From: Lytechinus pictus
Lineage: Eukaryota
Length of the DNA stretch: 64,000 bases
Reading direction: 5' to 3'
Assembly: GCF_037042905.1 (NCBI RefSeq)
Contig: NC_087251.1
Coordinates: 28,770,001 to 28,834,000 of the forward strand
This document shows, piece after piece, positions 42,001-64,000 of this stretch. The stretch's first letter is position 1, and every line of letters starts with the position of its first letter. The notes beneath the pieces were generated by a model. It was not told where the DNA came from. It worked only from the letters and a program-made list of their open reading frames with translations, and did not search any database. The position numbers and the translations under genes were made by a program.

Positions 42001-43823
42001 TTCGACCCCCTCGCCCCACCCGCGACATGAAAAATTGGGCAAAATTGGCCAAAATTGAGCAAAATAATATTTGTTCAATATTTCCCCCGAAACCCCCCCA
42101 AATCAGCCGTCCTTGCTTCCTGGGATGTTTTAGCATCCTAACCGATTATTACAGCGAGAATCAAGAGGATCCAGGGAGTTTGAATTTTCGACCCCCTCGC
42201 CCCACCCGCGACATGAAAAATTGGGCAAAATTGGCCAAAATTGAGCAAAATAATATTTGTTCAATATTTCCCCCGAAACCCCCCCAATCAGCCGTCTTTG
42301 CTCCCTGGGTTGTTTTAGCATCCTAACCGATTATTACAGCGAGAATCAAGAGGATCCAGGGAGTTTGAATTTTCGACCCCATTGCCCCACCCGCGACATG
42401 GAAAATTGGGCAAAATTGGCCAAAATTGAGCAAAATAATATTTGTTCAACATTTCCCCCGAAACCCCCCCAAATCAGCCGTCTTCGCTCCTTGGGATGTT
42501 TTAGCATCCTAACCGATTATTAAAGCAAGAATCAAGAGGATCCAGGGACTTTAAAATTTCGACCCCCTCGCCCCACCCGCAACGTGGAAAATTGGGCAAA
42601 ATTAGCCAAAATTGAGCAAAATAATATTTGTTCAACATTTCCCCGAAACCCCCCCCAAATCAGCCGTCTTTGCTCCCTGGGATGTTTTAGCATCCTAACA
42701 GATTATTACAGCGAGAATCAAGAGGATCCAGGGAGTTTGATTTTTCGACCCCCTCGCCCCACCCGCGACATGGAAAATTGGGCAAAATTGGCAAAAATTG
42801 AGGAAAAAAATATTTGTTCAATATTTCCCCCGAAACCCCCCCAAATCAGCCGTCTTCGTTCCCTGGGATGTTTTAGCATCCTAACCGATTATTACAGCGA
42901 GATTCAAGAGGATCCAGGGAGTTTGAATTTTCGACCCCCTCGCCCCACCCGCGACATGGAAAATTGGGCAAAATTGGCCAAAATTGAGCAAAATAATATT
43001 TGTTCAATATTTCCCCCGAAACTCCCCCAAATCAGCCGTCTTCGCTCCCTGGGATGTTTTAGCATACTAACCGATTATTACAGTGAAAATCAAGAGAATC
43101 AAGAGGATCCAGGGAGTAAGAATTTTCGACCCCCTCGCCCCACCCGCTACATGGAAAATTGAGCAAAATTGGCCAAAATTGAGCAAAATAATATTTGTTC
43201 AATATTTCCCCCTTAAACCCCCCCAAATCAGCCGTCCTTGCTTCCTGGGATGTTTTAGCATCCTAACCGATTATTACAGCGAGAATCAAGAGGATCCAGG
43301 GAGTTTGAATTTTCGACCCCCTCGCCCCACCCGCGACATGAAAAATTGGGCAAAATTGGCCAAAATTGAGCAAAATAATATTTGTTCAATATTTCCCCCG
43401 AAACCCCCCCAAATCAGCCGTCCTTGCTTCCTGGGATGTTTTAGCATCCTAACCGATTATTACAGTGAAAATCAAGAGGATCCAGGGAGTTTGAATTTTC
43501 GACCCCCTCGCCCCACCCGCGACATGAAAAATTGGGCAAAATTGGCCAAAATTGAGCAAAATAATATTTGTTCAATATTTCCCCCGAAACCCCCCCAAAT
43601 CAGCCGTCCTTGCTTCCTGGGATGTTTTAGCATCCTAACCGATTATTACAGCGAGAATCAAGAGGATCCAGGGAGTTTGAATTTTCGACCCCCTCGCCCC
43701 ACCCGCGACATGAAAAATTGGGCAAAATTGGCCAAAATTGAGCAAAATAATATTTGTTCAATATTTCCCCCGAAACCCCCCCAATCAGCCGTCTTTGCTC
43801 CCTGGGTTGTTTTAGCATCCTAA
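30980..43823. repeat. Short higher-order-repeat domain: 7-mer (1311 bp), 8-mer (1497 bp) and 9-mer (1683 bp) units
   Basis: The marker ORF MKIKRIKR...PLKPPQ starts at 31479, 32976, 34287, 35784, 37467, 38964, 40275, 41586 and 43083. Spacings are 1497, 1311, 1497, 1683, 1497, 1311, 1311, 1497. Confidence 0.9.
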
Positions 43824-46800
43824 CCGATTATTACAGCGAGAATCAAGAGGATCCAGGGAGTTTGAATTTTCGACCCCATTGCCCCACCCGCGACATGGAA
43901 AATTGGGCAAAATTGGCCAAAATTGAGCAAAATAATATTTGTTCAACATTTCCCCCGAAACCCCCCCAAATCAGCCGTCTTCGCTCCCTGGGATGTTTTA
44001 GCATCCTAACCGATTATTACAGCAAGAATCAAGAGGATCCAGAGAGTTTGAATTTTCGACCCCCTCTCCCCACCCGCGACATGGAAAATTGGGCAAAATT
44101 GTGCAAAATTGAGCAAAATAATATTTGTTCAATATTTCCCCCGAAACCCCCCCAAATCAGCCGTCCTCGCTTTCTGGGATGTTTTAGCATCCTAACCGAT
44201 TATTACAGTGAAAATCAAGAGAATCAAGAGGATCCAGGGAGTAAGAATTTTCGACCCCCTCGCCCCACCCGCGACATGGAAAATTGGGCAAAATTTGCCA
44301 AAATTGAGCAAAATAATATTTGTTCAATATTTCCCCCTAAACCCCCCCAAATCAGCCGTCCTCGCTTCCTGGGATGTTTTAGCATCCTAACCGATTATTA
44401 CAGCGAGAATCAAGAGGATCCAGGGAGTTTGAATTTTCGACCCCCTCGCCCCACCCGCGACATGAAAAATTGGGCAAAATTGGCCAAAATTGAGCAAAAT
44501 AATATTTGTTCAATATTTCCCCCGAAACCCCCCCAATCAGCCGTCTTTGGTCCCTGGGATGTTTTAGCATCCTAACCAATTATTACAGCGAGAATCAAGA
44601 GGATCCAGGGAATTTGAATTTTCGACCCCATTGCCCCACCCGCGACATGGAAAATTGGCCAAAATTGAGCAAAATAATATTTGTTCAACATTTCCCCCGA
44701 AACCCCCCCCAAATCAGCCGTCTTCGCTCCCTGGGATGTTTTCGCATCCTAATCGATTATTACAGTGAGAATCAAGAGGATCCAGGGAATTTGAATTTTC
44801 GACCCCCTCGCCCCACCGGCGACATGGAAAATTGGGCAAAATTGGCCAAAATTGAGCAAAATATTATTTGTTCAATATTTTCCCCGAAACCCCCCCAAAT
44901 CAGCCGTCTTCGCTCCCTGGAATGTTTTAGCATCCTAACCGATTATTACAGCGAGAATCATGAGGATCCAGGGAGTTTGAATTTTCGACCCCCTCGCCCC
45001 ACCCGCGACATGAAAAATTTGGCAAAATTGGCCAAAATTGAGCAAAATAATATTTGTTCAATATTTCCCCCGAAACCCCCCCCCAAATCAGCCGTCTTCG
45101 CTCCTTGGGATGTTTTAGCATCCTAACCGATTATTAAAGCAAGAATCAAGAGGATCCAGGGACTTTAAAATTTCGACCAACTCGCCCCACCCGCAACGTG
45201 GAAAATTGGGCAAAATTAGCCAAAATTGAGCAAAATAATATTTGTTCAACATTTCCCCGAAACCCCCCCCCAAATCAGCCGTCTTTGCTCCCTTGGATGT
45301 TTTAGCATCCTAACAGATTATTACAGCGAGAATCAAGAGGATCCAGGGAGTTTGATTTTTCGACCCCCTCGCCCCACCCGCGACATGGAAAATTGGGCAA
45401 AATTGGCCAAAATTGAGGAAAATAATATTTGTTCAATATTTCCCCCGAAACCCCCCCAAATCAGCCGTCTTCGCTCCCTGGGATGTTTTAGCATCCTAAC
45501 CGATTATTAGAGCAAGATTCAAGAGGATCCAGGGAGTTTGAATTTTCGACCCCCTCGCCCCACCCGCGACATGGAAAATTGGGCAAAATTGGCCAAAATT
45601 GAGCAAAATAATATTTGTTCAATATTTCCCCCGAAACCCCCCCAAATCAGCCGTCTTCGCTCCCTGGGATGTTTTAGCATACTAACCGATTATTACAGTG
45701 AAAATCAAGAGAATCAAGAGGATCCAGGGAGTAAGAATTTTCGACCCCCTCGCCCCACCCGCGACATGGAAAATTGGGCAAAATTGTGCAAAATTGAGGA
45801 AAATAATATTTGTTCAATATTTCCCCCGAAACCCCCCCAAATCAGCCGTCTTCGCTCCCTGGGATGTTTTAGCATCCTAACCGATTATTAGAGCAAGATT
45901 CAAGAGGATCCAGGGAGTTTGAATTTTCGACCCCCTCGCCCCACCCGCGACATGGAAAATTGGGCAAAATTGGCCAAAATTGAGCAAAATAATATTTGTT
46001 CAATATTTCCCCCGAAACCCCCCCAAATCAGCCGTCTTCGCTCCCTGGGATGTTTTAGCATACTAACCGATTATTACAGTGAAAATCAAGAGAATCAAGA
46101 GGATCCAGGGAGTAAGAATTTTCGACCCCCTCGCCCCACCCGCGACATGGAAAATTGGGCAAAATTGTGCAAAATTGAGCAAAATAATATTTGTTCAATA
46201 TTTCCCCCGAAACCCCCCCAAATCAGCCGTCCTCGCTTCCTGGGATGTTTTAGCATCCTAACCGATTATTACAGCGAGAATCAAGAGGATCCAGGGAGTT
46301 TGAATTTTCGACCCGCTCGCCCCACCCGCGACATGAAAAATTTGGCAAAATTGGCCAAAATTGAGCAAAATAATATTTGTTCAATATTTCCCCAGAAACC
46401 CCCCCAAATCAGCCGTCTTCGCTCCCTGGGATGTTTAAGCATCCTAACCGATTATTACAGCGAGATTCAAGAGGATCCAGGGAGTTTGAATTTTCGACCC
46501 CCTCGCCCCACCCGCGACATGGAAAATTGGGCAAAATTGGCCAAAATTGAGGAAAATAATATTTGTTAAATATTTCCCCCGAAACCCCCCAAAATCAGCC
46601 GTCTTCGCTCCCTGGGATGTTTAAGCATCTTAACCGATTATTACAGCGAGATTCAAGAGGATCCAAGGAGTTTGAATTTTCGACCCCCTCGCCCCACCCG
46701 CGACATGGAAAATTTGGCAAAATTGGCCAAAATTGAGGAAAATAATATTTGTTCAATATTTCCCCCGAAACCCCCCAAAATCAGCCGTCTTCGCTCCCTG

Positions 46801-47555
46801 GGATGTTTTAGCATCCTAACCGATTATTACAGCGAGAATCAAGAGGATCCAGGGAGTTTGAATTTTCGACCCCCTCGCCCCACCCGCGACATGGAAAATT
46901 GGGCAAAATTGGCCAAAATTGAGCAAAATAATATTTGTTCAATATTTCCCCCTAAACCCCCCCAAATCAGCCGTCTTTGCTTCCTGGGATGTTTTAGCAT
47001 CCTAACCGATTATTACAGCGAGAATCAAGAGGATCCAGGGAGTTTGAATTTTCGACCCCCTCGCCCCACCCGCGACATGAAAAATTGGGCAAAATTGGCC
47101 AAAATTGAGCAAAATAATATTTGTTCAATATTTCCCCCGAAACCCCCCCAATCAGCCGTCTTTGCTCCCTGGGTTGTTTTAGCATCCTAACCGATTATTA
47201 CAGCGAGAATTCAGAGGATCTAGGGAGTTTGAATTTTCGACCCCATTGCCCCACCCGGCGACATGGAAAATTGGGCAAAATTGGCCAAAATTGAGCAAAA
47301 TAATATTTGTTCAACATTTCCCCCGAAACCCCCCAAATCAGCCGTCTTCGCTCCCTGGGATGTTTTAGCATCCTAACAGATTATTACAGCGAGAATCAAG
47401 AGGATCCAGAGAGTTTGAATTTTCGACCCCCTCGCCCCACCCGCGACATGGAAAATTGGGCAAAATCGTGCAAAATTGAGCAAAATAATATTTGTTCAAT
47501 ATTTCCCCCGAAACCCCCCCAAATCAGCCGTCTTCGCTCCCTGGGATGTTTTAGC

Positions 47556-47559
47556 ATAC
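47556..47559 (+). other. Target-site duplication ATAC (left copy)
   Basis: ttagc-ATAC-[TGTAAC...GTGACA]-ATAC-taaccg; the uninterrupted satellite reads ttagcATACtaaccg. Confidence 0.95.
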
Positions 47560-47690
47560 TGTAACGACGACCCGGTTTGTCCTACGAGTCTCGCTATAAG
47601 AGTCTAAGTTAAATGTCGAGGATGGCCAGAGCTTAAATAATACAGTCGAAGCGAATAACAGTCATTACACAGCAAATTAAAGTTCAGTAG

Positions 47691-47696
47691 TTTATT
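47691..47696 (-). terminator. Putative polyadenylation signal in the 3' LTR (copy at 56096-56101)
   Basis: AATAAA on the element strand followed by T/GT-rich sequence (tttaatttgctgtgtaatg), about 130 nt from the LTR end. Confidence 0.6.
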
Positions 47697-48011
47697 ACTG
47701 TTCAAAACTTAATGAAGGTGCAACAGAGTATGTGATGATGACAATTAAACAAACTCCAGCGATACATGGAATATGATAACTGAGATAACGTCGAGCAATG
47801 CTGAAACAATTATAACAACTTAACTTGTGATAATTCTGAACTGAACTTAGGCTCAGACGACTAAACTGGAATACATGTAAGGCTATGCTCGGAAAAGACT
47901 CTCGAAATAAAACTAAGCCCTAAACTGAGATGCTGCTCGCTTATATACACTTTCTGGACATAGCATGAAGGTCATCCCCAGCACACAGCAAAAACCCAGA
48001 TTCAGGGAGGG

Positions 48012-48031
48012 GAGAGAGAGAGAGAGAGAGG
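48012..48031. repeat. (GA)n microsatellite in the LTR (copy at ~56417-56436)
   Basis: A gagagagaga... run about 65 nt upstream (element orientation) of the putative TATA box; same length in both LTRs. Confidence 0.85.
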
Positions 48032-48261
48032 GATAAGGTCAAGTAATAGAATAAGCACATAACGACCGATACACTGACCACAAGGTTAAACTAGTAGTTT
48101 GGACATTAGGAGTTGAGGGAGAGAAGTCTGAAGGGCAGGGCAAAGTCGAAGTGAGGAGGGAGAACGCGGAGGGAGTTACAGAACATAAATGTGTAGCCAA
48201 GGTAATAAACAAGAACACGTTTCTGAAAGTAGTCGCAAGGTTAAAGAGAACTACACAGGTT

Positions 48262-48426
48262 TGAAAGTCACTGGAAAGGGAAAAGAGAGGAGGGATGAAA
48301 GTTACTGGAAGGAGAAGTGAGGAGGGTTGAAAGTCACTGGAAAGAGAAAATGAGGAGGGTTGAAAGTCACTGGAAAGAGAAAGTGAGGAGAGTTGAAAGT
48401 CACTAGAAAGAGAAAGTGAGGAGAGT
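48262..48426. repeat. Five ~33-bp tandem repeats in LTR U3 (copy at 56667-56831)
   Basis: Units like tgaaagtcactggaaagagaaagtgaggagagt start at 48262, 48296, 48328, 48361 and 48394. Confidence 0.9.
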
Positions 48427-48755
48427 AAAACTTCTGAAAGTAGATGCAAGGTCGCAAAGAAGGGAGATGCATTGTTAGCAATTTCTGGAAGACGAAGGAA
48501 AGCCAAAGAGAATACAGAGTGGACAGACCAGAAGAGTTTGACCATGAGCAATTTACAGTATAAGAGAGGGCTTGGCTGTGTGCAGGTTACTGGGCAAGTT
48601 GAAAGTGACATTCACAATTTATCTTAGCAAGACATTCATTGCATAAATGAGTCGAATACAATTTGATATAATAAACACTAATTAAAGCATAAGAATGGAA
48701 TTATATACATAAACATAATAAGAGAATATCGGAACATCAACCAAAATGCGTGACA

Positions 48756-48768
48756 CTATTCTCCCCCC
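48756..48768 (-). promoter_or_regulatory. Polypurine tract (plus-strand primer)
   Basis: The element strand reads GGGGGGAGAATAG immediately before the TGTCA start of the 3' LTR. Confidence 0.9.
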
Positions 48769-50478
48769 ACGGAAGATATTGCTGTCCCCAGCGATGAAAT
48801 GGGAATATATTAGAGAAAGGAAAGAGCGAAAGAGAGATAGAGAGAGAAATACGAATTAAGATGGAGAGAGGGGAAAAGAGGAAGGAAAACAGCAAGAATA
48901 AAAAGAAATTGTGGGCATACATAGATCATACATAAAAGTAACTGAACATGATAACATTATAAAAACAACTATACATATACAAACAGGCGGAGTAGCAACT
49001 CTGACAATTATGTAGTATTGACAAAAATGTAGCAAGTGACAAAGAAATTGTTTTAAAAAGAGAACCAGACCCAAGAACAGGATTGGAGATGAGAAATTGG
49101 AAATTGCTTGAGTGTTAGAGAAAGGAAAAGAAATAGTGAAGAGAGAAAGGGAGAAAACGAGGAAAGGGTCTCAGTGATCTCCAATGAAGGCTAAACGCAT
49201 AAAATGACCAACATAAAACTGTTCCCCACATGAAACTAGCCACTAAAAGTATGGGAATAATATGACATGTGTGGCACTACTCAATTTCCTTCTAATCAGA
49301 AAAAAATAAAGCAGAAAACATCCATAAGCAAAACTGTGATAGGAAATCATCAAATAATCTCAAAAGTACACAAAAAGCCATTAAAACAAAATCAGTACGA
49401 CTCAAAACTGGATTATGACATAGAAATACAAAAATATATGACATTATGCAGGCAATATGCCTTTAGTTAAATCGAGCAATATATAAGAACGAAATTACTA
49501 CACAAGCAATACAAAGTTATGAACAAAATAATGGAAAGTACACATGAAACCTCAAATATAAAACTGGAAAATATGCAAAGTAATCATCAGAAAATGTATA
49601 ACTGAAATGTGCAAAAATGTTCCTGATACAAGAACCCTATAGTATTTTCTAAGCCTAGTATTCTCTTTCCTTTTGTTTTCTTCCTACTATTTACAAGCAA
49701 TACAACATTCCATATTCAAAAGGGAGAAAAGTATAGTGCGAAGATGACAGAATAGGGTGAAAAGGAAAAGGTAGACAAAGGCATGAATATTAGCAAGAGA
49801 ATTGATTAAATGATATGAGAAAGAAAACCAAAGAATGGATACTGGAGAGAGAGAGAGAGAGAGGAGAGAGTAAAGAAAAGCAGAATTTGTCCAACAACAA
49901 TTGCTTTTGCAGACCTATCAGTAACATAATAATAGCATAATGAAGTAGAAAAAAAAAAACCAATTTTTACACAGTGGCAAAAAAAAAAAAACATATTGAC
50001 ACACACAACTGACATAGTTGAAAGGAATATACAAATTATCAAGGTATGCGAGCTGTGGTTGTGATTCAAAAACCAAAAATGATGGTCTCCAATATTCCAA
50101 TCGCATGAATAGCGAACAGATAAACATATTGATGTGATCAACATAAACAAAATTTGCAAAACTATACTGATAGCAGAATAGAAATTCATTAGCACTATTA
50201 CAAAGCAACACAAAAATTAAAATAACATCCAGGTGTCATTAATTCAGAACCATTATTTGTGAATTACAGTGTTACACATTGAAGAAGAATGAAGCAGGGG
50301 TGAGTAATGAAAGAACAAGAAAAAGGATGAAAGTCGTGAGTGGAGTAGACTGTAAAAAAGGAAACAAGTGTAGATCGGGGAGAGAATAAGAGAGAGGGAG
50401 AGAGACAGAAAAAGAACAGAAAACTTCATACAATGACACTTCCAAATCTACATAACCTATGGTACACATTTTCATGTT
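48769..50478 (-). other. Long (~1.7 kb) AT-rich, apparently non-coding region between the pol stop and the PPT
   Basis: T-rich on the element strand. It contains only short low-complexity ORFs (<=135 aa) and no env-sized ORF. Confidence 0.8.
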
Positions 50479-53400
50479 CTAGTGTCCAAACTTGTCAATA
50501 ACTGCTCGTCTTCTATCCGATCGACGAGGGATAAAAGTGTCTTTTACTCTAGTCTGCGTGCCAGTAGAAGCAGTGTTTGAAAGAGTTATATTATTCCTAA
50601 CCTTATCCGCGTGTTCTTTTACCCATTTTGGGATGTCGGTGCTTCGAAAGGGTTTGAGACGATCATGGTGAAGGATTTTAAGTTTACCCTTCTGTTGAGA
50701 TTTGATTTCGAACACCAAATCACTCAGTTTTCTTGTTACAATACATGGTCCAATCCAAAAAGCAGACTTTAACTTAGGGGAAAGTCCTTTCTGTTTTGTG
50801 GTGTCTAGATAGTAGACTAAGTCCCCTGGCTTGTAGGTGTTCACTGATAGCCTAGAATCATAGTCCTTCTTCTGTCTCTGGGTTTGTGAGGACAGATGCT
50901 CACGAGCTATATTGTATGCATCCTTCATAGTAGAAACGATATTGGAGGCAAACTTGTCATAGTCATAGTTATTGATGTCGGGCTGGTCCACACCGAGGGA
51001 AATTTCAATTGGGGTTCTAACCTCACGCCCCAACATAAGAAAATTTGGCGAAAATCCAGTTGTCTCATGAACGGTGCTACGGTAGGCGGCCGTCAAGAGC
51101 GATAAGTTCATGTCCCATTCCTCTTGTTTCTTATCGACAAAAGCAGATATCATATTGACAAGTGTTTGATTGAATCTTTCAATCATTCCATTAGATGATG
51201 GATGGTATGGAGTCGTCCTTGTTTTGGTTATTTCCAGCAATTTACAAACATGTTGGAAAAGATGAGATTCAAAAGTCTTTCCTTGGTCCGAATGTATTTC
51301 CAAAGGTATGCCCCATCTAGCAATGAATTCATTGACAACGATGTTGGCGACAGTACGGGCAGTTTGATCAGGGATTCCATAGGCCTCGATCCATTTAGTA
51401 AAGGTATCTCCCACTACCAAAACATAACGGTTGCCTTGGTTACTGACAGGAAATGGTCCCATGATATCGAGAGCGATGCGATCCATAGGAAATCCAGAGT
51501 TATATTCGCCCAGAGGGGCCTTCGGTTTGGAAGTTGGACGCTTTCGGGCACCACATTTCACACAATTTCCGATGTACAGTTTTACAGAGTCCCTCATCCC
51601 CATCCAGTAAAATTTTTGCTGAATCCTACTGAATGTTTTCTTCACTCCGAGATGCCCCGATAGAACAGACTTATGGTTTGATTCTAAGATGCGATCGCGG
51701 AGTGCGAATGGGACGACGACTTGTTTGGTTGTTGTTAGTTTATTATTAGTCATATGCCGTTTGTATAAGACACCGTCAGTTAATTCAAGCTGTGCCCATG
51801 AGAGCCATAGGTTCCTTACAATTGGGCTCTTACCATGAACTAATGCTCGATTTGGTCTTTCTTGAGATTCTGAAATCCAATTATAGACGATACCGACGTC
51901 GGGATCATCTCGTTGCATTGTCATTAACGTCTCTCGGTCAAAGTCATTACGTATAACATCCTGCTGCCCAGAGTTCTCTCCAGCTAAGGCACCTGTTTCC
52001 GAGGCGCAGGGCAGGCTATCATTTGTTCTGACGTTTAACGAAGAATGTTTATTTCTCGACTTCCTTCTCGATTTCATATTCCTTACTACTGAAACTCTAA
52101 TTGGGGATGGCCAATTCCCTCTCCACATACTACTAAATACATCTCTCATGTAGCGTAATCCTCTAAACTCCAAAACAGCAACATACACGATAAACTCTAA
52201 AATCATCTTCGGAAGTCTACAAAATATCCTTGCAACGAGCTCGACTACGACCAGCATCATGACGACGATATCATACAGTCGACTCGAACGACTGGGTATC
52301 TCTTCTGGTTTCGATGACGGCGTTTGGGTGCTAATGTCATTAATTGGTTTCACGCATGTCCTCTGTACTTTCATGGCACTGATAGGAACGACATCGTCAT
52401 CCTCGTCGAAGAATTTCGACCAGGCCTTATGCCGCTTGGCACATGTTGTACACCCGCCACATGGTAATTGTTCAATGATAGAATCCCTGTCATAACAGTC
52501 ACATGATTCAGGATCGCATGGAATTCTCGACATCGCATCAGCATTGCCATGATTCCTGCCAACGCGATGCTCGATGTCGAAGTCGAATTGGCTAAGGATC
52601 TCGATCCATCGGGCAAGTTGATCTGTGGGTTCTCTAAATGACATAATCCATCTGAGGGAAGAATGATCAGTTCTAATTAAAAATTTCTTCCCTAGTAGGT
52701 AGTGTCGAAAATGCCGAACAAATGAGACGATTGCCAGCAATTCACGTCTTGTAGTGCAATATCGGCGTTGGGTTCTTGTTAATGTCCGGCTAGCGAAGGC
52801 GACTGGTCTCTCAATTTCCTTCTGAGTGACGTCATCCCACTGGAGTTGAGATAGGACTGCGCCTATTCCTGATGAAGATGCATCTGCATCAAGAATGAAC
52901 ATGCCATGGTCGTCGGGGTAGGCCATGACGTTGTCACTTAGCAATGCATCTTTTAATTGTTCGAATGATGATTGGCAGATGTCATCCCACACAAATTTAG
53001 AGGACTTTTCTAGTAGTTTATTCATGGGGGATGCGATCGATGAGAAGCCGCGAATGAATCGGCGATAGTATGAACACAAACCAAGAAATGAACGGACATC
53101 ACCTATCGACGTCGGCGTCGGCCAGTCGCGAACCTTGGCAACCTTCTCAGGGTCAGGCCTAATCCCCGATGCACTGATTATGTGTCCTAAATATGATACC
53201 TGGGTCTGGAAAAGGTGACATTTACTTGGTTTTAGCTTCAGGCCAGCTTCTCCCAAGCGTCCAAGTACCTCGTCGAGACGGGTGATGTGCTCCTCAATGG
53301 TTGAGCTCATTATAATGATGTCATCAAGATATAAGACCAATGTTCGCCACTGCAGACCTTTCATGATCAATTCCATTGCACGCTCAAAAGTGCTGGGTGC

Positions 53401-54810
53401 ATTGCATAACCCAAATGGCATTGTGACATATTCATAGTGTCCAGTCTGTGTACTAAATGCAGTTTTGTGCCTATCTTCTTCTTTAATGTCTATTTGCCAG
53501 TAACCTGACTGTAAGTCCAATGTAGAGAAGATTTGTGCACCTCCTAAGCAATCTAGACAGTCTTCAATGCGAGGTAATGGATATGCATCCTTTCTTGTGA
53601 CGTCATTTAATTTTCGATAGTCAACACAGGGACGCGTCGTACCATCACGCTTGCGAACATACACAAGCGGGCTCGACCACGCACTCGTTGATTCTCGAAT
53701 GATGCCCATTTCAAGCTGTGTCTTGATTATTTTCTCTTCCTCGTCAATGAAAGCTCGAGGTGGCCGACGGGGACGTTGTTTGATTGGGACTGCGTCCCCA
53801 GTGTCAATGTTGTGCTGGACGATAGAGGTTCGCCCAACATCAGTCGAAGAAGATGCAAATGTAGATGAATGTTTATCCAATAACTTAGAAAGTTCATTCT
53901 GTGTATCCTGGTCTAGTCCTTCACATGATTTCTGATATAACGATTGCAAGTCATCTGACCAGCTGTTCGATTGAACGTCCTCATTCAAACCAGCTTTCAC
54001 TGTACGAATACTGGGTTTCGAACTGTTCATAGCATTGGTATCACACATATATACATTGTCGATCAATTCGATAGAAGCTATTCGCATACCAGCTCGAAGA
54101 TCAATTGGTTCATTTGATGTATTAGCAACTCTTACTGGTATGTCTATATCATTCCGAGTAACATCAATTAGAACAGATGCGACATTAAGATCATCTTTGT
54201 TACATGTATGAGCAGTTTTCTCAATTATAGCACAGATTCCAGAGTCAGAGTCAAAATTATTTACCTTCCCTGGTACTATGAACTCCGAATTGGGTGGTAC
54301 AACAATATCATATTTAACATATACTGCACCTACTTGATTGCAGTCTTGAATTTCGATAGGGATTAATAGATTGTCAATATGAAGTCCGCGTCGAGCTTCT
54401 AGAATACAATTATAATGATGCATAAAATCAAATCCAATCAAGCATTCATCACTTATGTCTGCTATGTATGAAGTCCAAGAGAAATCCTTACCTCCAACAT
54501 TCACAGTTGCTTCAATAGTTCCATGAACATTTAAAATTCCATCATCAGCTGACTGAAGTTGAACTTGACTGGATAAAGTAACTAATTCCGGGCGGGTTTC
54601 TATTGGCATTTCTCCATAGAGCTTGGTGGACATAACAGTCACCGCTGCTCCAGAGTCGACCAAAAGTTTACACGAGGCCCCATTCACACTGCCTGAAATA
54701 TACGCTGTGAGTCCGTTTGATATGTCGATGCGTATTATCCTGGGACCCGATTCAACATTTTGGGCCGTGACCTGGTCGATGGGGTCGGCCCTCCCTAGTT
54801 TCCCGAAATA
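50479..54810 (-). CDS. pol: Pol polyprotein: aspartic protease, reverse transcriptase, RNase H, integrase (expressed as a Gag-Pol fusion)
   Basis: Protease LVDSGA; RT CVDYRKLN, LDLQSGYWQ, MPFGLCNAP and YLDD (53320-53331); RNase H DADASSSGIGAVL...TDH...NADAMSR; integrase H-x6-H...CxxC, DIMGP / HSDQG / GMIERFN (DDE) and a GPY/F-like module (WIGPC...HHDRLKPF). The frame is open from 54810, upstream of the track's GTG at 54687. Confidence 0.97.
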   Translation of the reverse strand, partial: YFGKLGRADPIDQVTAQNVESGPRIIRIDISNGLTAYISGSVNGASCKLLVDSGAAVTVMSTKLYGEMPIETRPELVTLSSQVQLQSADDGILNVHGTIEATVNVGGKDFSWTSYIADISDECLIGFDFMHHYNCILEARRGLHIDNLLIPIEIQDCNQVGAVYVKYDIVVPPNSEFIVPGKVNNFDSDSGICAIIEKTAHTCNKDDLNVASVLIDVTRNDIDIPVRVANTSNEPIDLRAGMRIASIELIDNVYMCDTNAMNSSKPSIRTVKAGLNEDVQSNSWSDDLQSLYQKSCEGLDQDTQNELSKLLDKHSSTFASSSTDVGRTSIVQHNIDTGDAVPIKQRPRRPPRAFIDEEEKIIKTQLEMGIIRESTSAWSSPLVYVRKRDGTTRPCVDYRKLNDVTRKDAYPLPRIEDCLDCLGGAQIFSTLDLQSGYWQIDIKEEDRHKTAFSTQTGHYEYVTMPFGLCNAPSTFERAMELIMKGLQWRTLVLYLDDIIIMSSTIEEHITRLDEVLGRLGEAGLKLKPSKCHLFQTQVSYLGHIISASGIRPDPEKVAKVRDWPTPTSIGDVRSFLGLCSYYRRFIRGFSSIASPMNKLLEKSSKFVWDDICQSSFEQLKDALLSDNVMAYPDDHGMFILDADASSSGIGAVLSQLQWDDVTQKEIERPVAFASRTLTRTQRRYCTTRRELLAIVSFVRHFRHYLLGKKFLIRTDHSSLRWIMSFREPTDQLARWIEILSQFDFDIEHRVGRNHGNADAMSRIPCDPESCDCYDRDSIIEQLPCGGCTTCAKRHKAWSKFFDEDDDVVPISAMKVQRTCVKPINDISTQTPSSKPEEIPSRSSRLYDIVVMMLVVVELVARIFCRLPKMILEFIVYVAVLEFRGLRYMRDVFSSMWRGNWPSPIRVSVVRNMKSRRKSRNKHSSLNVRTNDSLPCASETGALAGENSGQQDVIRNDFDRETLMTMQRDDPDVGIVYNWISESQERPNRALVHGKSPIVRNLWLSWAQLELTDGVLYKRHMTNNKLTTTKQVVVPFALRDRILESNHKSVLSGHLGVKKTFSRIQQKFYWMGMRDSVKLYIGNCVKCGARKRPTSKPKAPLGEYNSGFPMDRIALDIMGPFPVSNQGNRYVLVVGDTFTKWIEAYGIPDQTARTVANIVVNEFIARWGIPLEIHSDQGKTFESHLFQHVCKLLEITKTRTTPYHPSSNGMIERFNQTLVNMISAFVDKKQEEWDMNLSLLTAAYRSTVHETTGFSPNFLMLGREVRTPIEISLGVDQPDINNYDYDKFASNIVSTMKDAYNIAREHLSSQTQRQKKDYDSRLSVNTYKPGDLVYYLDTTKQKGLSPKLKSAFWIGPCIVTRKLSDLVFEIKSQQKGKLKILHHDRLKPFRSTDIPKWVKEHADKVRNNITLSNTASTGTQTRVKDTFIPRRSDRRRAVIDKFGH
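54745..54804 (-). promoter_or_regulatory. -1 programmed ribosomal frameshift signal (slippery G GGA AAC plus downstream stem/pseudoknot)
   Basis: Gag ends tcG GGA AAC TAG (heptamer 54798-54804) and pol is in the -1 frame. Six nt downstream, GGGCCG (54791-54786) can pair with CGGCCC (54767-54762). Confidence 0.85.
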
Positions 54811-55904
54811 TCAATTGGAGCTTCTCCTCCCTGCTGTCGAGGAAGTTGTGGCGGCTGAAAATGTGCGGGTTGCTGCCATGGCTGAGGTGGTGGAGGCTGA
54901 AAAGTTTGTTGCCACTGTGGGGGTGGTGGCTGCAAATATTGGGGAACAGCTGGTCCATGTCGCGGCGGAAAACGGCAGTTGCGGGCAAGATGACCGAGCT
55001 TTTGGCAGTTATAGCAACGCAGTGGTGGTCGATCACGTGGTTGCTGTTGTGCCCTCTGCTGCCTGATTTGGTTGTCTGGTTCCAGTCGAGGCTGCTCGAA
55101 CAATTTTGTGAGTTTGTCGATCCTCTCATCAATTGACAGGATTCGACCCCTCAACTCGAGAAATTTGTCATTTCCATCATCCCTTGTAGAAATGGCTCTA
55201 ACTGGACGATTTCCTCTTCCGGATTCCTCCCTTAGATTGTGAAATCGCTCAGCTATTTCTCTAGCTTCCTGGAGAGTCGCTGGTTCTTGCATGCCAATGG
55301 CCATGGCCATCGAATTATCACCGAGCCCCCGCAAGAAGTGGCGAGTTCCTATCATTTCTTTTGTTGACGAGTCCGCTGTTGCATATCCAAATGTTGTCAG
55401 CCGCCGAATATCCGCAGCATAGTCGGCGATTGATTCCTTTTGTCCAAGCCGACGTAACTCTAGCTGGGATACAAAAGTGGAAGGCGTTTTTCTGGCAGCA
55501 AATCTATTTTCCAGAGCATTTTCCAGCTGTGCAAAGTCTGATAATATGGCTGGAGAAAGTTGCTGGAAGACAAAGTCAGCCGCATCTCCACGCAGGCATG
55601 CTAGCAGACGTAAACGCTGTTCAGCGGCATCCCAACAACAAGTTGTCGCCAAGTTCTTAAATGAGGAGATGAAGCTCTCCCATGGACGGTTGATCCCATC
55701 ATATGGCTCCTGTGGTGGTAATTGCACTTTAACCCCGGTGTGAAAGTCTCTAGTGGGAGAATAGGGCTGTTTGATGTGATCATCAATTAGTTCGTCTCCA
55801 CTAACACTGTCATTCTCCTCCATTATTTTTCTAGTACTCGCTAATTCCGCCTTTAATTCACGGATCTCCCGCTCCAGATCTGACTTGCGCTTCCTCGGTG
55901 ACAT
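54795..55904 (-). CDS. gag: Gag (capsid-like region, CCHC zinc knuckle, Pro/Gln-rich tail), ~369 aa from the first ATG
   Basis: First ATG at 55904 (MSPRKRK...); the track's GTG start at 55961 lies inside the PBS. It has the capsid-like YDG...WESF...W...LRGDA pattern, the knuckle CYNCQKLGHLARNC (Cx2Cx4Hx4C), and lies between the PBS and pol. Confidence 0.93.
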   Translation of the reverse strand: MSPRKRKSDLEREIRELKAELASTRKIMEENDSVSGDELIDDHIKQPYSPTRDFHTGVKVQLPPQEPYDGINRPWESFISSFKNLATTCCWDAAEQRLRLLACLRGDAADFVFQQLSPAILSDFAQLENALENRFAARKTPSTFVSQLELRRLGQKESIADYAADIRRLTTFGYATADSSTKEMIGTRHFLRGLGDNSMAMAIGMQEPATLQEAREIAERFHNLREESGRGNRPVRAISTRDDGNDKFLELRGRILSIDERIDKLTKLFEQPRLEPDNQIRQQRAQQQPRDRPPLRCYNCQKLGHLARNCRFPPRHGPAVPQYLQPPPPQWQQTFQPPPPQPWQQPAHFQPPQLPRQQGGEAPIDISGN

Positions 55905-55941
55905 AATAGCTATTAAATTAAAACAGGCACGTGTTGAAGTA

Positions 55942-55963
55942 TCGAATCCCACTCCTGACACCA
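55942..55963 (-). promoter_or_regulatory. Primer-binding site complementary to the 3' end of tRNA-Leu (CAG-type)
   Basis: The element strand reads TGGTGTCAGGAGTGGGATTCGA, 1 nt downstream of the 5' LTR. The plus strand TCGAATCCCACTCCTGACACCA matches the T-arm/acceptor/CCA end of animal tRNA-Leu(CAG) as I recall it. Confidence 0.88.
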
Positions 55964-55964
55964 G

Positions 55965-57160
55965 TGTAACGACGACCCGGTTTGTCCTACGAGTCTCGCT
56001 ATAAGAGTCTAAGTTAAATGTCGAGGATGGCCAGAGCTTAAATAATACAGTCGAAGCGAATAACAGTCATTACACAGCAAATTAAAGTTCAGTAGTTTAT
56101 TACTGTTCAAAACTTAATGAAGGTGCAACAGAGTATGTGATGATGACAATTAAACAAACTCCAGCGATACATGGAATATGATAACTGAGATAACGTCGAG
56201 CAATGCTGAAACAATTATAACAACTTAACTTGTGATAATTCTGAACTGAACTTAGGCTCAGACGACTAAACTGGAATACATGTAAGGCTATGCTCGGAAA
56301 AGACTCTCGAAATAAAACTAAGCCCTAAACTGAGATGCTGCTCGCTTATATACACTTTCTGGACATAGCATGAAGGTCATCCCCAGCACACAGCAAAAAC
56401 CCAGATTCAGGGAGGGGAGAGAGAGAGAGAGAGAGGGATAAGGTCAAGTAATAGAATAAGCACATAACGACCGATACACTGACCACAAGGTTAAACTAGT
56501 AGTTTGGACATTAGGAGTTGAGGGAGAGAAGTCTGAAGGGCAGGGCAAAGTCGAAGTGAGGAGGGAGAACGCGGAGGGAGTTACAGAACATAAATGTGTA
56601 GCCAAGGTAATAAACAAGAACACGTTTCTGAAAGTAGTCGCAAGGTTAAAGAGAACTACACAGGTTTGAAAGTCACTGGAAAGGGAAAAGAGAGGAGGGA
56701 TGAAAGTTACTGGAAGGAGAAGTGAGGAGGGTTGAAAGTCACTGGAAAGAGAAAATGAGGAGGGTTGAAAGTCACTGGAAAGAGAAAGTGAGGAGAGTTG
56801 AAAGTCACTAGAAAGAGAAAGTGAGGAGAGTAAAACTTCTGAAAGTAGATGCAAGGTCGCAAAGAAGGGAGATGCATTGTTAGCAATTTCTGGAAGACGA
56901 AGGAAAGCCAAAGAGAATACAGAGTGGACAGACCAGAAGAGTTTGACCATGAGCAATTTACAGTATAAGAGAGGGCTTGGCTGTGTGCAGGTTACTGGGC
57001 AAGTTGAAAGTGACATTCACAATTTATCTTAGCAAGACATTCATTGCATAAATGAGTCGAATACAATTTGATATAATAAACACTAATTAAAGCATAAGAA
57101 TGGAATTATATACATAAACATAATAAGAGAATATCGGAACATCAACCAAAATGCGTGACA
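55965..57160 (-). repeat. 5' LTR (1196 bp)
   Basis: Same sequence and length as 47560-48755; the internal 190-aa ORF translation is identical in both. It is adjacent to the PBS. Imperfect terminal inverted repeat TGTCACG...CGTTACA on the element strand. Confidence 0.97.
56346..56352 (-). promoter_or_regulatory. Putative TATA box in the 5' LTR (copy at 47941-47947)
   Basis: The element strand reads gtgTATATAAgcgagcagc, located 250 nt upstream of the LTR AATAAA, consistent with a U3-R-U5 layout. Confidence 0.6.
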
Positions 57161-57164
57161 ATAC
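57161..57164 (+). other. Target-site duplication ATAC (right copy)
   Basis: Directly follows the LTR end GTGACA and duplicates 47556-47559. Confidence 0.95.
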
Positions 57165-60100
57165 TAACCGATTATTACAGTGAAAATCAAGAGAATCAAG
57201 AGGATCCAGGGAGTAAGAATTTTCGACCCCCTCGCCCACTCGCGACATGGAAAATTGGGCAAAATTTGCCAAAATTGAGCAAAATAATATTTGTTCAATA
57301 TTTCCCCCTAAACCCCCCCAAATCAGCCGTCCTTGCTTCCTGGGATGTTTTAGCATCCTAACCGATTATTACAGCGAGAATCAAGAGGATCCAGGGAGTT
57401 TGAATTTTCGACCCCCTCGCCCCACCCGCGACATGAAAAATTGGGCAAAATTGGCCAAAATTGAGCAAAATAATATTTGTTCAATATTTCCCCCGAAACC
57501 CCCCCAATCAGCCGTCTTTGCTCCCTGGGTTGTTTTAGCATCCTAACCGATTATTACAGCGAGAATCAAGAGGATCCAGGGAGTTTGAATTTTCGACCCC
57601 ATTGCCCCACCCGCGACATGGAAAATTGGGCAAAATTGGCCAAAATTGAGCAAAATAATATTTGTTCAACATTTCCCCCGAAACCCCCCCAAATCAGCCG
57701 TCTTCGCTCCCTGGGATGTTTTAGCATCCTAACCGATTATTACAGCGAGAATCAAGAGGATCCAGAGAGTTTGAATTTTCGACCCCCTCGCCCCACCCGC
57801 GACATGGAAAATTGGGCAAAATTGGCCAAAATTGAGCAAAATAATATTTGTTCAATATTTCCCCCGAAACCCCCCCAAATCAGCCGTCCTCGCTTCCTGG
57901 GATGTTTTAGCATCCTAACCGATTATTACAGTGAAAATCAAGAGAATCAAGAGGATCCAGGGAGTAAGAATTTTCGACCCCCTCGCCCCACCCGCGACAT
58001 GGAAAATTGGGCAAAATTTGCCAAAATTGAGCAAAATAATATTTGTTCAATATTTCCCCCTAAACCCCCCCAAATCAGCCGTCCTCGCTTCCTGGGATGT
58101 TTTAGCATCCTAACCGATTATTACAGCGAGAATCAAGAGGATCCAGGGAGTTTGAATTTTCGACCCCCTCGCCCCACCCGCGACATGAAAAATTGGGCAA
58201 AATTGGCCAAAATTGAGCAAAATAATATTTGTTCAACATTTCCCCCAAAACCCCCCCAAATCAGCCGTCTTCGCTCCCTGGGATGTTTTAGCATCCTAAC
58301 CGATTATTACAGCGAGAATCAAGAGGATCCAGAGAGTTTGAATTTTCGACCCCCTCGCCCCACCCGCGACATGGAAAATTGGGCAAAATTGTGCAAAATT
58401 GAGCAAAATAATATTTGTTCAATATTTCCCCCGAAACCCCCCCAAATCAGCCGTCCTCGCTTCCTGGGATGTTTAAGCATCCTAACCGATTATTACAGCG
58501 AGAATCAAGAGGATCCAGGGAGTTTGAATTTTCGACCCGCTCGCCCCACCCGCGACATGAAAAATTTGGCAAAATTGGCCAAAATTGAGCAAAATAATAT
58601 TTGTTCAATATTTCCCCAGAAACCCCCCCAAATCAGCCGTCTTCGCTCCCTGGGATGTTTTAGCATCCTAACCGATTATTACAGCGAGAATCAAGAGGAT
58701 CCAGAGAGTTTGAATTTTCGACCCCCTCGCCCCACCCGCGACATGGAAAATTGGGCAAAATTTGCCAAAATTGAGCAAAATAATATTTGTTCAACATTTC
58801 CCCGAAACCCCCCCCCAAATCAGCCGTCTTTGCTCCCTGGGATGTTTTAGCATTATTACAGCGAGAATCAAGAGGATCCAGGGAGTTTGATTTTTCGACC
58901 CCCTCGCCCCACCCGCGACATGGAAAATTGGGCAAAATTGGCCAAAATTGAGGAAAATAATATTTGTTCAATATTTCCCCCGAAACCCCCCCAAATCAGC
59001 CGTCTTCGCTCCCTGGGATGTTTTAGCATCCTAACCGATTATTACAGCGAGAATCAAGAGGATCCAGGGAGTTTGAATTTTCGACCCCCTCGCCCCACCC
59101 GCGACATGAAAAATTGGGCAAAATTGGCCAAAATTGAGCAAAATAATATTTGTTCAATATTTCCCCCGAAACCCCCCCAAATCAGCCGTCTTTGCTCCCT
59201 GGGTTGTTTTAGCATCCTAACCGATTATTACAGCGAGAATCAAGAGGATCCAGGGAGTTTGAATTTTCGACCCCATTGCCCCACCCGGCGACATGGAAAA
59301 TTGGGCAAAATTGGCCAAAATTGAGCAAAATAATATTTATTCAACATTTCCCCCAAAACCCCCCCAAATCAGCCGTCTTCGCTCCCTGGGATGTTTTAGC
59401 ATCCTAACCGATTATTACAGCGAGAATCAAGAGGATCCAGAGAGTTTGAATTTTCGACCCCCTCGCCCCACCCGCGACATGGAAAATTGGGCAAAATTGG
59501 CCAAAATTGAGCAAAATAATATTTGTTCAATATTTCCCCCGAAACCCCCCCAAATCAGCCGTCCTCGCTTCCTGGGATGTTTTAGCATCCTAACCGATTA
59601 TTACAGTGAAAATCAAGAGAATCAAGAGGATCCAGGGAGTAAGAATTTTCGACCCCCTCGCCCCACCCGCGACATGGAAAATTGGGCAAAATTTGCCAAA
59701 ATTGAGCAAAATAATATTTGTTCAATATTTCCCCCTAAACCCCCCCAAATCAGCCGTCCTCGCTTCCTGGGATGTTTTAGCATCCTAACCGATTATTACA
59801 GCGAGAATCAAGAGGATCCAGGGAGTTTGAATTTTCGACCCCCTCGCCCCACCCGCGACATGAAAAATTGGGCAAAATTGGCCAAAATTGAGCAAAATAA
59901 TATTTGTTCAACATTTCCCCCAAAACCCCCCCAAATCAGCCGTCTTCGCTCCCTGGGATGTTTTAGCATCCTAACCGATTATTACAGCGAGAATCAAGAG
60001 GATCCAGAGAGTTTGAATTTTCGACCCCCTCGCCCCACCCGCGACATGGAAAATTGGGCAAAATTGTGCAAAATTGAGCAAAATAATATTTATTCAATAT

Positions 60101-63100
60101 TTCCCCCGAAACCCCCCCAAATCAGCCGTCCTCGCTTCCTGGGATGTTTAAGCATCCTAACCGATTATTACAGCGAGAATCAAGAGGATCCAGGGAGTTT
60201 GAATTTTCGACCCGCTCGCCCCACCCGCGACATGAAAAATTTGGCAAAATTGGCCAAAATTGAGCAAAATAATATTTGTTCAATATTTCCCCAGAAACCC
60301 CCCCAAATCAGCCGTCTTCGCTCCCTGGGATGTTTTAGCATCCTAACCGATTATTACAGCGAGAATCAAGAGGATCCAGAGAGTTTGAATTTTCGACCCC
60401 CTCGCCCCACCCGCGACATGGAAAATTGGGCAAAATTTGCCAAAATTGAGCAAAATAATATTTGTTCAACATTTCCCCGAAACCCCCCCCCAAATCAGCC
60501 GTCTTTGCTCCCTGGGATGTTTTAGCATTATTACAGCGAGAATCAAGAGGATCCAGGGAGTTTGATTTTTCGACCCCCTCGCCCCACCCGCGACATGGAA
60601 AATTGGGCAAAATTGGCCAAACTTGAGGAAAATAATATTTGTTCAATATTTCCCCCGAAACCCCCCCAAATCAGCCGTCTTCGCTCCCTGGGATGTTTTA
60701 GCATCCTAACCGATTATTACAGCGAGAATCAAGAGGATCCAGGGAGTTTGAATTTTCGACCCCCTCGCCCCACCCGCGACATGAAAAATTGGGCAAAATT
60801 GGCCAAAATTGAGCAAAATAATATTTGTTCAATATTTCCCCCGAAACCCCCCCAAATCAGCCGTCTTTGCTCCCTGGGTTGTTTTAGCATCCTAACCGAT
60901 TATTACAGCGAGAATCAAGAGGATCCAGGGAGTTTGAATTTTCGACCCCATTGCCCCACCCGGCGACATGGAAAATTGGGCAAAATTGGCCAAAATTGAG
61001 CAAAATAATATTTGTTCAACATTTCCCCCAAAACCCCCCCAAATCAGCCGTCTTCGCTCCCTGGGATGTTTTAGCATCCTAACCGATTATTACAGCGAGA
61101 ATCAAGAGGATCCAGAGAGTTTGAATTTTCGACCCCCTCGCCCCACCCGCGACATGGAAAATTGGGCAAAATTTGCCAAAATTGAGCAAAATAATATTTG
61201 TTCAATATTTCCCCCGAAACCCCCCCAAATCAGCCGTCCTCGCTTCCTGGGATGTTTAAGCATCCTAACCGATTATTACAGCGAGAATCAAGAGGATCCA
61301 GGGAGTTTGAATTTTCGACCCGCTCGCCCCACCCGCGACATGAAAAATTTGGCAAAATTGGCCAAAATTGAGCAAAATAATATTTGTTCAATATTTCCCC
61401 AGAAACCCCCCCAAATCAGCCGTCTTCGCTCCCTGGGATGTTTTAGCATCCTAACCGATTATTACAGCGAGAATCAAGAGGATCCAGAGAGTTTGAATTT
61501 TTGACCCCCTCGCCCCACCCGCGACATGGAAAATTGGGCAAAATTGTGCAAAATTGAGCAAAATAATATTTGTTCAATATTTCCCCCGAAACCCCCCCAA
61601 ATCAGCCGTCCTCGCTTCCTGGGATGTTTTAGCATCCTAACCGATTATTACAGCGAGAATCAAGAGGATCCAGGGAGTTTGAATTTTCGACCCGCTCGCC
61701 CCACCCGCGACATGAAAAATTTGGCAAAATTGGCCAAAATTGAGCAAAATAATATTTGTTCAATATTTCCCCAGAAACCCCCCCAAATCAGCCGTCTTCG
61801 CTCCCTGGGATGTTTAAGCATCCTAACCGATTATTACAGCGAGATTCAAGAGGATCCAGGGAGTTTGAATTTTCGACCCCCTCGCCCCACCCGCGACATG
61901 GAAAATTGGGCAAAATTGGCCAAAATTGAGGAAAATAATATTTGTTAAATATTTCCCCCGAAACCCCCAAAAATCAGCCGTCTTCGCTCCCTGGGATGTT
62001 TAAGCATCTTAACCGATTATTACAGCGAGATTCAAGAGGATCCAAGGAGTTTGAATTTTCGACCCCCTCGCCCCACCCGCGACATGGAAAATTTGGCAAA
62101 ATTGAGCAAAATAATATTTGTTCAATATTTCCCCAGAAACCCCCCCAAATCAGCCGTCTTCGCTCCCTGGGATGTTTTAGCATCCTAACCGATTATTACA
62201 GCGAGAATCAAGAGGATCCAGAGAGTTTGAATTTTCGACCCCCTCGCCCCACCCGCGACATGGAAAATTGGGCAAAATTGTGCAAAATTGAGCAAAATAA
62301 TATTTGTTCAATATTTCCCCCGAAACCCCCCCAAATCAGCCGTCCTCGCTTCCTGGGATGTTTTAGCATCCTAACCGATTATTACAGCGAGAATCAAGAG
62401 GATCCAGGGAGTTTGAATTTTCGACCCGCTCGCCCCACCCGCGACATGAAAAATTTGGCAAAATTGGCCAAAATTGAGCAAAATAATATTTGTTCAATAT
62501 TTCCCCAGAAACCCCCCCAAATCAGCCGTCTTCGCTCCCTGGGATGTTTAAACATCCTAACCGATTATTACAGCGAGATTCAAGAGGATCCAGGGAGTTT
62601 GAATTTTCGACCCCCTCGCCCCACCCGCGACATGGAAAATTGGGCAAAATTGGCCAAAATTGAGGAAAATAATATTTGTTAAATATTTCCCCCGAAACCC
62701 CCAAAAATCAGCCGTCTTCGCTCCCTGGGATGTTTAAGCATCTTAACCGATTATTACAGCGAGATTCAAGAGGATCCAAGGAGTTTGAATTTTCGACCCC
62801 CTCGCCCCACCCGCAACATGGAAAATTGGGCAAAATTGGCCAAAATTGAGGAAAATAATATTTGTTCAATATTTCCCCCGAAACCCCCCCAAATCAGCCG
62901 TCTTCGCTCCCTGGGATGTTTTAGCATCCTAACCGATTATTAGAGCAAGATTCAAGAGGATCCAGGGAGTTTGAATTTTCGACCCCCTCGCCCCACCCGC
63001 GACATGGAAAATTGGGCAAAATTGGCCAAAATTGAGCAAAATAATATTTGTTCAATATTTCCCCCGAAACCCCCCCAAATCAGCCGTCTTCGCTCCCTGG

Positions 63101-64000
63101 GATGTTTTAGCATACTAACCGATTATTACAGTGAAAATCAAGAGAATCAAGAGGATCCAGGGAGTAAGAATTTTCGACCCCCTCGCCCCACCCGCTACAT
63201 GGAAAATTGGGCAAAATTGGCCAAAATTGAGCAAAATAATATTTGTTCAATATTTCCCCCTAAACCCCCCCAAATCAGCCGTCCTTGCTTCCTGGGATGT
63301 TTTAGCATCCTAACCGATTATTACAGCGAGAATCAAGAGGATCCAGGGAGTTTGAATTTTCGACCCCCTCGCCCCACCCGCGACATGAAAAATTGGGCAA
63401 AATTGGCCAAAATTGAGCAAAATAATATTTGTTCAATATTTCCCCCGAAACCCCCCCAATCAGCCGTCTTTGCTCCCTGGGTTGTTTTAGCATCCTAACC
63501 GATTATTACAGCGAGAATTCAGAGGATCTAGGGAGTTTGAATTTTCGACCCCATTGCCCCAACCGGCGACATGGAAAATTGGGCAAAATTGGCCAAAATT
63601 GAGCAAAATAATATTTGTTCAACATTTCCCCCGAAACCCCCCAAATCAGCCGTCTTCGCTCCCTGGGATGTTTTAGCATCCTAACAGATTATTACAGCGA
63701 GAATCAAGAGGATCCAGAGAGTTTGAATTTTCGACCCCCTCGCCCCACCCGCGACATGGAAAATTGGGCAAAATCGTGCAAAATTGAGCAAAATAATATT
63801 TGTTCAATATTTCCCCCGAAACCCCCCCAAATCAGCCGTCTTCGCTCCCTGGGATGTTTTAGCATACTAACCGATTATTACAGTGAAAATCAAGAGAATC
63901 AAGAGGATCCAGGGAGTAAGAATTTTCGACCCCCTCGCCCCACCCGCGACATGGAAAATTGGGCAAAATTTGCCAAAATTGAGCAAAATAATATTTGTTC
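57161..64000. repeat. Tandem satellite array, ~186-bp monomer (right arm, ~36 monomers, runs off the window)
   Basis: The same monomer resumes in register immediately after the retrotransposon (atac-taaccgattattacagtgaaaatcaa...). Confidence 0.99.

Follow-up and report, generated by a model that had tools for sequence, protein, structure and literature searches.

When one intact retrotransposon is found inside a long satellite array, was it directed there or did it arrive by ordinary integration? This question is raised by a 64-kb stretch of the Lytechinus pictus genome (contig NC_087251.1, positions 28,770,001 to 28,834,000; hereafter the window, with positions counted from its first letter), which holds a Ty3/Gypsy element on the minus strand at 47556..57164, embedded in a 186-bp satellite. 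A first-pass annotation had read this locus as a very recent insertion by an active family, a candidate for targeting satellites or centromeres. We consider it likely, with a probability of about 0.6, that this intact and young element, cleanly inserted at an ATAC of the satellite, reflects ordinary integration at ATAY-type sites and not centromere targeting, and that its Pol contains a hydrophobic segment, recurrent across its clade, for which a role as membrane anchor of the polyprotein is predicted.

A clean insertion in a structured satellite array

The insertion and its surroundings comprise the following features:

47556..47559, no strand: left copy of the target-site duplication (TSD), ATAC
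47560..48755, minus strand: 3' long terminal repeat (LTR), 1196 bp, with a 33-bp internal repeat in five copies and a GA run
48756..48768, minus strand: polypurine tract (PPT), adjoining the 3' LTR
55946..55963, minus strand: primer-binding site, of which the first 12 nt pair with the 3' end of tRNA-Leu(CAA)
55965..57160, minus strand: 5' LTR, identical to the 3' LTR
57161..57164, no strand: right copy of the TSD, ATAC
1..47555, plus strand: 186-bp satellite, about 254 copies, with nested higher-order repeats (HORs)
about 57165..64000, plus strand: 186-bp satellite in the same orientation, about 37 copies

Alignment of the two LTRs gave 1196/1196 identical positions, and identity stops exactly at the TG...CA termini. 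Excising the element and one TSD in silico produced a monomer variant that is present at 33 other sites of the window (235 sites carry ATCC instead), and five of these 33 match the rebuilt empty site exactly, over 284–305 bp on the left and 73 bp on the right. Since the rebuilt empty site equals a real monomer variant, the insertion is clean and lies at an ATAC within a satellite monomer. The first-pass description of LTRs of 1196 bp without a difference, a perfect TSD, an intact primer-binding site and PPT beside the LTRs, and uninterrupted gag and pol (both open on the minus strand) was borne out, as was the statement that the element is the sole non-satellite sequence in the 64 kb, the remainder being one-strand 186-bp satellite. 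Paired TG...CA LTRs with a TSD, the order of the pol domains, and the primer site and PPT identify the element as Ty3/Gypsy. The 12-mer of the primer site appears as TRNAL-CAA in the supplement of PMC13524379, and tRNA-Leu(CAA) would prime reverse transcription. A scan found no tRNA gene or Rfam family. The 33-bp tandem repeat lies at 48257–48423 and 56662–56828 in the two LTRs, and length variants of it occur in organism B.

With no difference in 1196 bp, LTR divergence is at most 0.25% (95% bound), which, if a rate between 1e-8 and 5e-9 per site is assumed, places the insertion less than about 125,000–250,000 generations ago (95% bound). The element is intact and young, as had been proposed, though the lack of differences sets only an upper bound on its age.

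The surrounding array had been called homogeneous. It is indeed a 186-bp array on one strand, but not a simply homogeneous one: there are 85 distinct monomers among 278 (mean identity of 93% among the 79 distinct full-size monomers), organised in nested HORs of 1311, 1497, 3358 and 4128 bp. Regular HORs of 7 and 8 monomers (1311 and 1497 bp) occupy 32000–43900, and units of 18 and 22 monomers (3358 and 4128 bp) lie further left; the monomer contains an internal 10-bp repeat, and variants of 195/196 bp are marked by a duplication of 9–10 bp. At the largest scale, an exact match of 16,160 bp at an offset of 16,850 bp (1–16160 versus 16851–33010, about 90 monomers, and possibly reaching left of the window) can be read as a block duplication of very recent date, as a giant HOR or as a duplication made by the assembly. 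Unless this match is an artefact of the last kind, the array has a turnover too fast for the LTR clock to resolve. If the duplication is real, any surviving insertion would look young, whether targeted or not, and removal of old insertions from fast-turnover arrays would account for the youthful look of this copy. The element sits among the least homogeneous monomers of the window: monomers seen once make up 11/19 and 13/32 of those beside it, against 4/55 in the regular HOR block and 23/86 in one copy of the 16.85-kb unit.

A nucleosome-sized monomer, a long one-strand array and HORs are traits typical of centromeres, without being diagnostic, and this abundant HOR-forming satellite is a ready candidate for sea-urchin centromere DNA, on which our literature searches found no paper. 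A CENP-B box was found on neither strand. In a DNA run of organism B, the satellite (57165–57350) reaches very high depth at a likeness of at least 88%; it is therefore shared by two species labels and older than this insertion. An origin of the satellite from the element was rejected (best E-value of 0.43). At 57474–58850 on the plus strand, one reading frame of the satellite runs through 458 codons without a stop, which follows from its 186-bp (62-codon) unit and is not evidence of a gene.

Pol and the bridge between RNase H and integrase

The modest novelty of this locus comes from Pol, a lone young Gypsy element in a satellite being ordinary. The internal region reads as follows:

50479..54810, minus strand: pol, 1443 amino acids (aa; counted stop to stop), with protease, reverse transcriptase (RT), RNase H, bridge, integrase (H2C2, rve and p58_C/GPY-F-like) and a 56-aa tail
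52381..52530, minus strand: cysteine-rich module directly after RNase H, pol aa 761–810
52126..52290, minus strand: hydrophobic transmembrane-like segment, pol aa 841–895, predicted as two helices between disordered linkers
54795..55904, minus strand: gag, 369 aa from the ATG at 55904, with a CCHC zinc knuckle and a weak Ty3 capsid match below the Pfam cut-off
54798..54804, minus strand: GGGAAAC slippery heptamer directly 5' of the gag stop, with pol in the -1 frame
48769..50478, minus strand: T-rich 3' region of 1.7 kb, 45% T on the element strand, with short low-complexity frames only

The bridge spans about 290 aa, with the cysteine-rich module at its start and the hydrophobic segment after it. 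We compared it across the query and its best 120 of 7,363 protein hits. The motif of the cysteine module occurs in 81 of these 121 proteins, with four invariant cysteines and three further ones conserved at 90% or more (alignment A2); from the spacing of its cysteines and histidines, the module may bind a metal, putatively zinc.

The hydrophobic segment, about 86 aa after RNase H, is the only Kyte–Doolittle peak of at least 1.5 in pol (2.32). In an RT–RNase H tree of 118 proteins (three of the 121 were dropped for short alignments), computed without reference elements of the named invertebrate Gypsy clades SURL/C-clade and MolGy1-16 (PMC6238403), the query falls inside a clade of 65 (FastTree support of 0.947) whose named members (P0034, P0049) are from a sea cucumber and a pearl oyster. 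A 19-aa window with a hydropathy of at least 1.8 is found in the bridge of 49/64 clade members with enough sequence and in 0/51 proteins outside the clade, and the same window within the RT–RNase H domains in 0/115; these counts are not independent, since the proteins are related by descent. With 81.6% identity over 1388 aa, P0001 is the protein nearest to pol; a Strongylocentrotus purpuratus gene model from its cluster shares 79.8% identity with pol. Identity to P0001 falls to 58% in the bridge segment, versus 87–91% in the enzyme domains, while hydrophobicity is retained, a pattern that resembles membrane helices.

A second bridge helix (at least 1.5) is present in 12 of the 49, including 10/12 of the query's own subclade, and at least three lysines or arginines follow the helix within 15 aa in 21/49. 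An AlphaFold model predicts helices at pol 842–863 and 868–896 (predicted local distance difference test, pLDDT, of about 70–85) and disordered linkers. A helical hairpin of this kind would leave RT and integrase on one side of the membrane; in members with a single helix, that helix would have to be re-entrant or bound to the membrane surface. For the bridge, the Atlas gave no look-alike at 0.9 or above and Pfam no match above the cut-off, and the listed fold matches are to RT/RNase H.

The likeliest role of the predicted helix is that of a membrane anchor for Gag-Pol, and we put it at even odds that it works as one at all, with no link to targeting. It would tether Pol to a membrane until protease frees RT and integrase. 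The Pol proteins of LTR retrotransposons are regarded as soluble. A membrane-type helix conserved in mid-Pol among echinoderm and bivalve relatives would point to an undescribed step in env-less elements, with membrane-tethered particle assembly, nuclear entry and cell-to-cell spread as candidates. A narrow literature search found no description of the module or the helix, a thin basis for calling them undescribed. Any link between the helix and insertion into the satellite is speculation, and it seems improbable that a marine-invertebrate Gypsy clade has acquired both anchor and zinc module in Pol, with the anchor keeping the integration machinery at the nuclear envelope and biasing insertion to peripheral heterochromatin, which would make this both the first satellite-seeking retrotransposon and the first centromere marker of sea urchins.

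Pfam matches in pol at aa 38–131, 385–545, 608–742 and 1033–1387 correspond to protease, RT, RNase H and integrase, and the RNase H fold is nearest to those of CaMV and Ty3 RT. GGGAAAC before the gag stop is presumably a frameshift site, at which a -1 frameshift would yield Gag-Pol; the sequence downstream forms a hairpin no better than shuffled sequences do (z of 0.71), and the heptamer is found near the pol start in only 2/17 related loci checked. No chromodomain was detected in pol (Pfam, E-value of 0.01), and its last 63 aa match no Pfam family at an E-value of 1; the missing domain at the integrase C-terminus speaks against a chromovirus, CRM included. The 3' region has no env open reading frame (ORF): its longest ATG frame is of 127 aa and low complexity, and three such frames have no Pfam match above the cut-off, which speaks against an errantivirus (env-bearing Gypsy).

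Ordinary integration or satellite targeting

Other copies of the family exist. Run X1 (organism A) contains near-identical but distinct ones, with 9 differences in 4726 bp of pol and 19 differences plus 11 gaps in 1711 bp of gag and LTR. In DNA run X13 (organism B), relatives reach a mean depth of 417–670 over the LTR and 4–177 over internal bins, and the satellite-monomer bin 64,526; from these depths, which give no copy number, we read only a multi-copy family, probably with many solo LTRs, and a very abundant satellite. That the family is multi-copy is supported by the distinct copies in X1 and the relatives in X13; LTR identity does not prove that it is active at present, as first suggested. 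In two RNA runs, matching records (11 out of 8.7 million in X21, 4 out of 8.3 million in X22) were not enough to judge expression or strand. Depth in run X1 over the LTR (56394–56506) falls from about 41–47 to 9 and climbs in the 3' region. Such a profile, should X1 be RNA, would bracket the R region and a poly(A) site near the GA run.

One contig of X1 leaves the outer end of the LTR via ATAT and continues for at least 255 letters; a search of the window with the first 30 of them, allowing 3 mismatches, gave no match. The family is therefore not confined to this satellite. Judging from the two sites, ATAC and ATAT, the integrase would cut with a 4-bp stagger and prefer ATAY; sites of this type number 551 in the 54,395 bp of satellite. 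Across the many LTR families of one genome, a hit is to be expected: for 1,000 LTR insertions and a satellite at 0.5% of the genome (both assumed), the probability of at least one satellite hit is 0.99. We conclude that satellite targeting is less likely than chance insertion combined with array turnover. The earlier proposal of satellite or centromere targeting is not supported: it draws on a single insertion, the flank at the other site is non-satellite, the integrase lacks a chromodomain, and the satellite is no more than a candidate for centromeric DNA.

Several points weigh against ordinary integration with a membrane-anchored Pol. Just two insertion sites were seen, one in the satellite and one outside it; the latter is a sample of one, seen in a contig that covers at least the outer end of the LTR and comes from a run that looks like RNA because it shows no satellite depth and that would favour transcribed DNA. 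With a family of 10–30 copies, and the satellite again assumed at 0.5%, a chance satellite hit has a probability of only 0.05–0.14. The missing chromodomain excludes nothing, since Tal1 of Arabidopsis targets centromeres without one. In monomer size and HORs the satellite resembles a centromeric one, and its depth in the DNA run of organism B is very high (64,526 versus about 100 internally, though depth does not measure copy number). For the membrane role, the evidence consists of hydropathy and a model of low predicted template modelling score (pTM, 0.43), and the query's own second helix scores only 1.24.

The strongest alternative, which we regard as possible though rather unlikely, is that the family is centrophilic or satellite-biased, with an integrase tail that reads CENP-A or satellite chromatin as in Tal1 and an array that is the centromere. 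The insertion does lie within a 186-bp HOR satellite, satellite and family both occur in organism B, a small family would be unlikely to hit the satellite by chance alone, and Gypsy is the LTR superfamily most enriched in satellite arrays across taxa in a 325-genome centromere atlas (10.64898/2026.09.17.752431). However, one other family flank is non-satellite, there is a single insertion in 54 kb of array with no cluster, and the site falls among the most heterogeneous monomers, whereas in the atlas HORs peak at array centres. None of the three listed joints in X13 connects an LTR end to a monomer, a weak point against bias given that one joint was dropped, 78 loose ends were unshown and contigs break at branch points. 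The assembly piece also extends for at least 22.3 Mb on one side of the locus and at least 13.5 Mb on the other. The karyotypes of strongylocentrotid urchins are probably mostly acrocentric, for which literature searches gave no confirmation.

Two other accounts concern the array and not the integrase. One earlier insertion could have been copied along with satellite blocks by unequal exchange, in an array that duplicates blocks longer than the element (16,160 bp exact at an offset of 16,850); we find this improbable, as no second copy with the same TSD and flanks exists in the 64 kb and the flanks consist of many unique monomers instead of a duplicated block. Least probable of all is that assembly or polishing of repetitive DNA went wrong here and produced the LTR identity, or the junctions, as an artefact. 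The perfectly identical 16-kb block could be a false duplication, and no read or contig examined crosses the junctions, but the TSD is exact, the empty site equals a real monomer variant, the element measures just 9.6 kb, and contigs from an independent run cover every internal-region and LTR bin with few differences.

Viral-contig scans with pol and with the LTR end gave no match. A metagenome scan yielded 48 distant loci; no complete element, flanked and with both of its LTRs, is among them, nor does any resemble the LTR or the satellite of this window; one genome-contig match (L049) was discarded as a chance 21-mer in a bacterial assembly. Contigs of metagenome or symbiont assemblies (L001–L012, L017 and L020) encode this animal Gypsy clade, and proteins P0061 and P0074 are labelled as bacterial symbionts; these contigs and proteins are likely host contamination of public assemblies.

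Comparison with known systems

CRM chromoviruses and ATHILA belong, like the present element, to the Ty3/Gypsy superfamily and lie in satellite arrays. Both are plant lineages, whereas the present integrase lacks a chromodomain, its C-terminus consisting of a GPY/F-like domain followed by a short basic tail.

The first-pass view that descriptions of such elements are scarcer for animals no longer holds. Satellite arrays of animals are known to harbour young Gypsy elements, a pattern reported in the 2026 centromere atlas preprint (10.64898/2026.09.17.752431): transposons make up 10% of invertebrate satellite arrays, LTR elements are younger and more intact inside arrays than outside, and one wasp has centromeres of Gypsy clusters. 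The present locus is alike in having a young, intact Gypsy inside a 100–200-bp HOR satellite; enrichment was measured genome-wide there, and one copy is seen here. The main text of the atlas names no echinoderm or urchin, and its supplementary satellite table might list this satellite.

Closer in taxonomy are the env-less Ty3/Gypsy elements of echinoderms (Chary and Hayashi 2026, PMC13524379), which share gag plus pol, the lack of env, multiple copies and long LTRs. Young multi-copy Gypsy families are common in urchins: the supplement of that study lists 18 multi-copy intact families for Heliocidaris alone, and the 15 of them examined here have 4–23 copies each. Of these 15, 3 share the tRNA-Leu(CAA) primer site, a likeness by description and not by sequence. 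Neither a cysteine module nor a hydrophobic helix is among the bridge structures described there (pseudo-RNase H, mini domains).

The hydrophobic segment recalls the FAST-like sORF2 of the MDG1 group (Voichek et al. 2025, 10.1101/2025.03.14.642691), likewise encoded by env-less Gypsy elements and likewise short and predicted to span a membrane, in many cases with basic residues after it. However, sORF2 is a separate ORF of 60–130 aa before gag, mostly with an N-myristoylation motif. The present segment lies in frame inside Pol, with no separate short N-myristoylation ORF, and an identity as such a fusogen, judged by the published definition, was rejected.

A further parallel is Tal1/ALE4 of Arabidopsis (Tsukahara et al. 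2025, PMC11735389): it too inserts into a nucleosome-sized satellite and needs no chromodomain. De novo insertions demonstrated that it targets CENH3, an ability traced to the C-terminus of its integrase, where small changes of the tail matter. Tal1 is Ty1/Copia, unlike the present Ty3/Gypsy element; if this family were satellite-biased as well, it would be an animal counterpart of Tal1.

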